Source: Escherichia coli
GTDB taxonomy: Bacteria > Pseudomonadota > Gammaproteobacteria > Enterobacterales > Enterobacteriaceae
DNA: 64,000 nt
Assembly: GCF_036507355.1 (NCBI RefSeq)
Contig: NZ_AP027877.1
Strand: one strand, 5' to 3'
Shown here in pieces: positions 53,333 to 54,586 of the stretch (the stretch's first letter is position 1; each line of letters opens with the position of its first letter). The position numbers and the translations under genes are program-made. The notes under the pieces are model-generated. The model saw only the letters and a program-made list of their open reading frames with translations, searched no databases and was not told the origin of the DNA.

Positions 53333-54030
53333 TTAGCCTGCCATTTTTGCCAGCAGAGCCGCACCCACTGGTTCTTCGTTCTGCAGTGGCGTTAATGCAA
53401 TACGCTTTGCAAACTGCTCTGCAACGTCATTTATCAGCGGCAGTTCGCGACTGGCTCGGGTTACCAGGAACGGTGAGGACGGTTTCGCAGCAGCCAGACT
53501 GCTATTGATTACCCATGCCCATGGTTCAATTTCAGCCCGACGCAAATCCTGTTGCAGGTTTGCCGCTTCCAGCACCGGTGTCGTTTCGGCAAGCGTCACG
53601 ATAATCACCTTCGTCTTCTCCGGGTCATCGGCCAGAGACTGCTGGGGACGCCGGTTAAGGTCGGATTCTTCAATCAACCACCGCTCATCTTCAGGTAATG
53701 CCTGCAATGTTTCAGGCAGGCAAATATCCAGCGTTGAGATTGCATCAGTGGATGGATCAGTTAATGGGGCATCATCTTCCAGATCAACGAATTCCCTGGT
53801 GGTGCGGTACTCATCAATCAGCAGATTCCTCGCCGCCCGATACAGCCAGGCTCGCGGATTCTCCATTTCGCAGAAACTGTCTGAATGAGCGCGGGCACGC
53901 AGGAATAGCTCTTGTAGAAGGTCTGCTGCTTTTTCGCTATCACCTGTCTTCTATGTCAGAAAGCGAGAGAGTTCGGCTTCATGTTGCTGCCAGAACACGC
54001 TCATGCAGTTGTTGAATGCCGTTACATCAC
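53333..54030 (-). pseudogene. Mosaic remnant: ECF sigma-70-like 5' part with in-frame stop fused to C-terminal fragment of a second arsA
   Basis: Minus strand MSDVTAFNNCMSVFWQQHEAELSRFLT-stop-...DLLQELFLRARAHSDSFCEMENPRAWLYRAARNLLIDEYR then KVIIVTLAETTPVLEAANLQQDLRRAEIEPWAWVINSSL (compare Ars[40 protein letters not shown]). Confidence 0.55.
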
Positions 54031-54042
54031 TCATACCAGCCC

Positions 54043-54586
54043 TCAAATTTTGCTCTGATTAACCCGCCGTGAAAGTTCTTCTGCAGATTCTTTTCGTTCG
54101 CTGTAGCGATCAACGAGATAGGCTGAGTTACCTCGGGTCAGCAGAGTAAATTTCACCAGTTCTTCCATCACATCCACGATTCGGTCGTAATAAGACGACG
54201 GTTTCATTCGTCCATCTTCATCAAATTCCTGCCAGGCTTTTGCCACAGAGGACTGATTCGGGATGGTGATCATCCGCATCCAGCGGCCAAGAATTCGCAT
54301 CTGGTTTACGGCATTGAAAGACTGAGAGCCACCGCAGACCTGCATAACGGCCAGTGTCTTACCCTGCGAAGGGCGAACAGCGCCTTCTGATAACGGTATC
54401 CAATCAATCTGGGCTTTCATGATGCCGGTCATCGCACCATGGCGTTCAGGGGAACACCACACCATCCCTTCGGACCAACGAACCAGCTCGCGCAGTTCCA
54501 TGACTTTAGGATGTGAGTCAGGCGCATCATCAGGAAGAGGCAAGCCTGAGGGATTGAAGATCCGAACCTCTTCGCCCATGGCTGCA
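54043..54586 (-). pseudogene. arsH: arsH (NADPH:FMN reductase), N-terminally truncated by IS3-family insertion
   Basis: ArsH-like sequence ..[36 protein letters not shown]..; first about 42 codons of ORF 54043-54714 are IS sequence. Confidence 0.6.

Follow-up and report, generated by a model that had tools for sequence, protein, structure and literature searches.

Beside an intact arsenic-resistance operon, the Escherichia coli DNA analysed here (the window, 64,000 nucleotides of contig NZ_AP027877.1, assembly GCF_036507355.1) carries a minus-strand stretch, 53333-54586, of puzzling composition: the head of a sigma-factor gene with an in-frame stop reads straight into the end of an arsA gene, and the adjoining arsH has lost its beginning next to an insertion sequence (IS). 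A sequence-only reading had called this mosaic gene debris and had seen in it the trace of a second, different ars cluster that was once here and was eroded. We asked what the ancestor of this stretch was, which events produced its present form, and whether any of its products could still work. Very probably, 53333-54586 is what remains, without function, of a second ars operon with the gene order arsR2-arsH-ECF sigma-arsD2-arsA2-GNAT, and three lesions explain all of it.

Three gene remnants on the minus strand

The stretch holds an arsA2 tail, the head of an ECF sigma gene and an arsH without its 5' end. Translation of 53333-54046 begins with MSDVTAFNN, meets a stop codon between AELSRFLT and KTGDSEK (the residues before and after it being MSDVTAFNNCMSVFWQQHEAELSRFLT and KTGDSEKAADLL), continues through LPEDERWLIEESDLNRRPQQSLADDPEKTKVIIVTLAETTPVLEAANLQQDL and ends with AKMAG and a stop. 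At DPEKTKVIIVTLAETTPVLEAANLQ the sigma reading runs unbroken into the arsA tail. That a sigma head with an in-frame stop passes without interruption into an ArsA C-terminus, as the sequence-only reading had it, was confirmed by translation, Pfam, NCBIfam and BLASTP, and formal searches gave significant similarity to both protein families: in Pfam, residues 15-80 of the fused translation matched Sigma70_r2 (E 2.9e-11) and residues 134-232 matched ArsA_ATPase (E 2.7e-8), and NCBIfam matched its head to SigZ-type and general ECF sigma models and its tail to the ArsA model TIGR04291 (E 2.7e-31).

The sigma remnant (53627-54034) comprises codons 1-136 of 181, as judged from Pfam and from alignment to three intact alleles. 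Region 2, which serves core binding and -10 recognition, is present, in keeping with ECF sigma membership (TIGR02937). No Pfam match to Sigma70_r4 (region 4, the -35 recognition helix-turn-helix) was found in the remnant; an intact homologue has Sigma70_r4_2 at residues 105-156. With the breakpoint at codon 136, most of region 4 has been lost, and so has the Cys-rich C-terminal tail. The frame is also interrupted, with a TAG nonsense codon at codon 28 (53951-53953, minus strand) where intact alleles have Ser (TCA/TCT/TCG). The arsA2 remnant (53333-53626, minus strand) consists of the last 97 codons and the stop, without P-loops or metalloid-binding site. It matches positions 480-565 of the 565 of TIGR04291 and scores 108.9 bits against a cutoff of 650 bits, far short of a full-length two-domain ArsA. 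Both P-loop domains (A1 and A2) are absent, whereas an intact arsA2 homologue has P-loop-type Pfam matches at about 12-60 and 330-365.

The arsH remnant (54043-54584, minus strand) extends from about codon 58 to codon 237 and the stop, as identified by TIGR02690, Pfam FMN_red and the full ArsH proteins of loci L001 and L004. Its match to TIGR02690 covers positions 55-219 of 219 (E 2.8e-103) and, at 343.7 bits, exceeds the cutoff of 292.25, so the fragment clearly derives from arsH. The FMN_red match covers profile positions 30-152 of 152, positions 1-29 being absent. The truncation was thus read correctly from the sequence, but its size had been put at roughly 50 codons; compared with the 237-aa ArsH of a 99.9%-identical genome, residues 1 to about 58 are missing. 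Gone with them are the start codon and the N-terminal stretch YGSVRERSYSR; G-S-x-R-x-x-S is the flavin-binding stretch of the NADPH-dependent FMN reductase fold. By junction comparison, arsH homology and the IS terminus are separated by two bases, CA (54585-54586), since IS copies elsewhere begin at 54587; these might be the CA of the next arsH bases, TCA, after loss of one T.

Two minus-strand frames remain open across the remnants, a 177-aa ORF (53333-53866) and a 223-aa hybrid of IS and arsH (54043-54714), and inert fragments may be translated from them. The plus-strand ORFs at 53299-53505, 53505-53885, 53698-54012 and 54419-54586 gave no Pfam match at E <= 0.1 and are taken as antisense shadow ORFs.

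An intact parent operon at the same site

Comparison with related genomes identified the intact parent in E. coli Combat11I9 (NZ_CP021726), where arsRDABC is followed by a convergent arsR2-arsH-sigma-arsD2-arsA2-GNAT operon. This second operon occupies the same site as in the window, in the interval from tRNA-Gly to ygeH, a gene of the ETT2 locus, and its intact form at that chromosomal position bears out the earlier claim of a second ars cluster, once present and then eroded. In both Combat11I9 and FAM21845 the operon follows arsRDABC on the other strand and encodes an ArsR/SmtB regulator, ArsH, a 181-aa sigma-70-family (ECF) sigma factor, an ArsD-family protein and a 585-aa ArsA, which is followed in Combat11I9 by a GNAT acetyltransferase. 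This order makes the sigma gene an ordinary member of the second ars operon, and because of this the sigma'-'arsA fusion reduces to one internal deletion of 2058 bp. The fusion seen in the supposed mosaic is therefore real, but it is not a union of unrelated fragments.

BLAST returned three colinear blocks, pairing window 42586-53626 with Combat11I9 30827-19795 (coordinates of locus L006; 96.0% identity), 53625-54582 with 17736-16779 (97.2%) and 55816-64000 with 12849-4675 (97.5%), which leaves 2058 bp and 3929 bp unaccounted for. The two strains agree in the site, gene order and strand of the second operon and share 96-97% DNA identity in the retained parts; missing from the window, compared with Combat11I9, are arsR2, arsD2, the 5' end of arsH, the 3' end of sigma and about 488 arsA2 codons, and its sigma remnant is interrupted by a nonsense codon. 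The parent operon runs convergent to arsRDABC and belongs to an integrative island at tRNA-Gly(CCC)/glyU, next to the ETT2 locus.

The first operon of the window, arsR-arsD-arsA-arsB-arsC (48333-52637, plus strand), is intact according to its ORFs and the RefSeq annotation of the near-identical locus L001, and is convergent with the decayed operon. Judged from gene content, the arsenic resistance of the window strain would rest on this arsRDABC set. The last gene of the second operon, an ArsN1-like GNAT gene (52672-53208, minus strand), is also intact and lies in the same position 3' of arsA2 as in Combat11I9. Its best NCBIfam match is arsinothricin-resistance ArsN1 family B, at 146 bits below the cutoff of 210. 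The gene is now orphaned, the 5' end of the operon upstream and the promoter region having been lost.

A complete IS3-family element joins arsH to ygeH

The neighbour of the arsH remnant is a complete IS3-family element of 1229 bp (54587-55815, minus strand), whose limits are set by copies elsewhere in E. coli that span exactly this interval at 99.7-100% identity. Like other IS3-family insertion sequences, it has an orfA (55474-55758, minus strand; HTH_Tnp_1, E 4.4e-20 in Pfam), an orfB (54605-55417, minus strand; rve, the DDE integrase core, E 1.4e-33, with HTH_21 also found) and imperfect terminal inverted repeats with the TG...CA ends of the family. The repeats begin with TGAATCGCCACGG and form 38-nt arms, 74% complementary, at 54587-54624 and 55778-55815. 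RefSeq labels all copies simply "IS3 family transposase"; the element may be ISEhe3, a 1229-bp member of the family.

Whereas IS3-family elements make a short target-site duplication (3-4 bp), none was found at this IS, which is flanked by TGCA and CTCT, and its flanks come from two different genes. On the far side lies ygeH (55816-56790, minus strand), whose product is an ETT2-locus regulator of the HilA family and which is cut short after codon 325: homology to ygeH of Combat11I9 begins at 55816 (L006 12849), and the stop codon of the remnant is the terminal TGA of the IS. The sequence-only reading, in which arsH was cut by an IS and its beginning replaced by IS3-family end sequence, named the right kind of neighbour but not the right event. 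Simple insertion of the IS into arsH is rejected, the other flank being ygeH. An IS that joins arsH to a truncated ygeH without target-site duplication instead means that at least 3.9 kb was lost with it. The loss would be 3929 bp if the ancestor was like Combat11I9, and about 34 kb (~33.8 kb) if it was like strain 23S01245-7, in which case the distal island and ETT2 type III secretion genes would have gone too. In 23S01245-7, ETT2 secretion-apparatus genes lie between the ars island and ygeH; they have no counterpart there in the window.

We propose that the IS marks a deletion that would have removed the arsH 5' end, arsR2 with the presumed promoter, genes of the distal island and, from ygeH, the 3' third. 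A missing target-site duplication is expected if deletion or recombination between IS copies followed insertion, and of the two routes recombination between two IS copies appears more likely than an IS-promoted adjacent deletion.

The arsH'/IS/'ygeH junctions are known from the window assembly alone: among complete E. coli genomes, a 3-kb query spanning all of them found no covering record. Repeat collapse is a known assembly failure, and if two IS copies had been collapsed and the DNA between them falsely deleted, both the absence of the junctions from every other complete E. coli genome and the missing target-site duplication would follow. We nevertheless regard such an artefact as quite improbable. 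The IS is full-length, with both ends base-precise to unique sequence save for the CA at 54585-54586; real recombination between IS copies yields an identical structure; and the sigma/arsA junction of the same stretch is independently confirmed in 23S01245-7. Taken as a real deletion, the IS-linked lesion is specific to the window genome among those searched, yet of a routine kind.

An internal deletion and a nonsense codon came first

The sigma and arsA2 remnants meet at 53625-53626, where three-way sequence comparison places a 2-bp microhomology, TC, common to both parents. The 2058 bp missing relative to Combat11I9 run from the 3' part of sigma through the whole of arsD2 into arsA2, of which the first ~488 codons are lost. 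A joint with only 2 bp of microhomology is typical of illegitimate recombination, and a deletion of this type at TC would have joined sigma codon 136 to about arsA2 codon 489, in frame by chance, taking with it sigma region 4, arsD2 and both arsA2 nucleotide-binding domains. The fusion reads unbroken because the parental sigma and arsA2 frames happen to coincide and 2058 is 3 x 686. A second lesion, the nonsense mutation of Ser28 to TAG, would have interrupted the sigma remnant itself.

Both lesions recur in 23S01245-7 (NZ_OZ197100.1), which has the same deletion junction and the same TAG and differs from the window by a single mismatch over 52600-54584 (1985 bp), with 99.86% identity over 42585-54584 (12 kb). 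Its two pieces are RefSeq pseudogenes, ACNUEE_RS00200 and ACNUEE_RS00205, annotated as "internal stop; missing C-terminus" and "missing N-terminus", so the sigma/arsA pseudogene pair is already known from a near-identical strain. Unlike the window, 23S01245-7 has no IS here, its arsH is complete, arsR2 is present, and the distal island and ETT2 secretion genes have been kept; since it shares the deletion and the nonsense codon and still keeps arsH and arsR2 complete, these two lesions predate the IS-linked one. When window 53200-54700 was run by megablast against the set of 5426 complete E. coli genomes, many records matched over 53625-54582 alone (sigma and arsH), and one matched everything up to 54584. 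The deletion junction is covered by 23S01245-7 alone among the 5426, and it is in none of the PLSDB plasmid matches listed.

Other strains have lost other parts of the operon. In JX2 (L003:8170-8215), sigma codon 113 is fused in frame to the last ~17 arsA2 codons, without the TAG and at about 95% identity, which is most simply explained by an independent deletion. MJ-T (L010:4625-5038) and ET565 (L011:4494-4907) keep only the last 138 arsA2 codons, beside an AlpA gene. These deletions differ from one another and from that of the window lineage, which indicates that erosion of the second operon is common in E. coli. On four more chromosomes, those of ET650, ET729, B379 and YDMW_2, an identical "ArsA-related P-loop ATPase" annotation covers this part of the query. 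The arsA2 tail (53340-53626) is 79% identical to that of FAM21845 (L002:5656-5942), as against 98% for the adjacent sigma-arsH segment; from this difference, second-operon alleles appear to be recombinant mosaics between strains.

An in-frame deletion that leaves a 177-aa ORF open, together with the apparently independent JX2 deletion that again fuses sigma to an ArsA tail in frame, could also be read as a real chimeric gene under selection that has gained a new function, for instance as a regulatory fragment. We consider this very improbable. The TAG at codon 28 precedes the 177-aa ORF, and the fusion has neither sigma region 4 nor either of the ArsA P-loop domains. A scan of 53100-54800 for promoters and terminators gave no excess over shuffled sequence and no promoter-like site on the minus strand. 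Both parts are pseudogenes in 23S01245-7, the only one of the 5426 complete genomes to carry the junction, and two in-frame events are expected by chance about 1 time in 9, which is not significant.

That the arsA tail might be copied in part from the intact arsA next to it (49111-50862) is scarcely credible and is refuted by the identities: the tail is colinear with the C-terminus of the local ArsA, but the alignment that the sequence-only reading had proposed, made with the 177-aa ORF against the protein encoded at 49111-50859, gave only 58% amino acid identity (88 aa, residues 487-574, E 3e-30 by BLASTP), and DNA shared with the first arsA of related loci is short (47 nt at 87-89% and 98 nt at 77% in BLAST), whereas the tail and the 3' intergenic DNA up to the GNAT gene are 96-98% identical to arsA2 alleles of several E. 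coli, every match ending at 53626. With the intact arsA2 of Combat11I9 and others, DNA identity of the tail is 97%.

Other features of the island

At 38339-38412 the window has tRNA-Gly(CCC), after which come two tandem islands. The 3' end of the tRNA is repeated directly as a 23-bp sequence, TTCGATTCCCTTCGCCCGCTCCA, at 38390-38412 and 42586-42608, and the 4.2-kb island between these two copies is about 90% identical to one that 23S01245-7 carries distal to its ars island. By this placement, the order of the two islands differs between the window strain and 23S01245-7. Relative to the same strain, an 8-bp insertion, CAAGACCA, at 47411-47418 frameshifts an ABC-three-component-system (ABC-3C) gene at about 47175-48122 (minus strand), whose ORF now stops at 47391; a putative defence gene thus also looks inactivated.

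Discussion

The decay of the second ars operon is ordinary pseudogene debris, and no product of 53333-54586 would be expected to work. The sigma gene is interrupted and lacks region 4, the ArsA tail has no nucleotide-binding domain, arsH is without its start and flavin-binding segment, and arsR2 and the presumed promoter are gone. In annotation, the 177-aa and 223-aa ORFs should be treated as pseudogene fragments, and the labels "sigma factor", "ArsA-related ATPase" or full arsH should be avoided; likewise, gene presence alone is no ground for ascribing organoarsenical functions to the window strain, whether through ArsH or, possibly, through the ArsN-like GNAT. The shared lesions also order the events on the island: the deletion and the nonsense codon came first, and it was later that the IS-linked event took away arsR2, the 5' end of arsH and part of ygeH.

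The wider interest of the locus is indirect and lies in the intact parental operon, which holds an unstudied CorE/SigZ-like sigma factor inside an arsenic operon; a full-text literature search found no functional study of the sigma of the second ars operon. The intact parental sigma (L004:9337-9882, homologue of window 53627-54034) scores best against SigZ models, although at 139 below their cutoff of 168.65, and ends in a Cys-containing tail, ...CQIEADDTSPVCCHKKMN, whose three Cys are kept in three alleles. No anti-sigma gene is annotated in the second ars operon. Members of ECF238 lack an anti-sigma partner and carry a C-terminal extension, rich in cysteine and about 20 aa long, that senses metals directly (PMC7826278). 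The parental sigma resembles the CorE/CorE2/SigZ-type sigmas of this group in its Cys-containing C-terminal tail and in having SigZ as its best model, and by this analogy it could be arsenite-responsive; in the window, both the tail and region 4 are deleted. One may go further and suppose an arsenite-sensing CorE/SigZ-like sigma driving arsD2-arsA2-arsN in a module that is repeatedly, possibly selectively, lost from glyU islands when a complete arsRDABC is present, with the in-frame fusions of the window lineage and JX2 being selected. We hold this to be unlikely; if it were true, in-frame fusions would, for example, avoid polar effects on the downstream GNAT gene.

Relatives of these genes also occur on plasmids. 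In PLSDB, arsA2-like sequence occurs in 1825 plasmid records, mostly at 60-80% identity and mostly from Klebsiella, and most of the gene-annotated matches among those listed are called arsA. These copies from Klebsiella and other hosts differ from the window in being more divergent, and the matches listed end where the window has its deletion breakpoint. On pESI, a plasmid of Salmonella Infantis, arsH, a sigma-70-like gene, arsD and arsA occur together (PMC12504007). This enterobacterial plasmid module has the same gene set as the parent operon, of which the window has fragments only.
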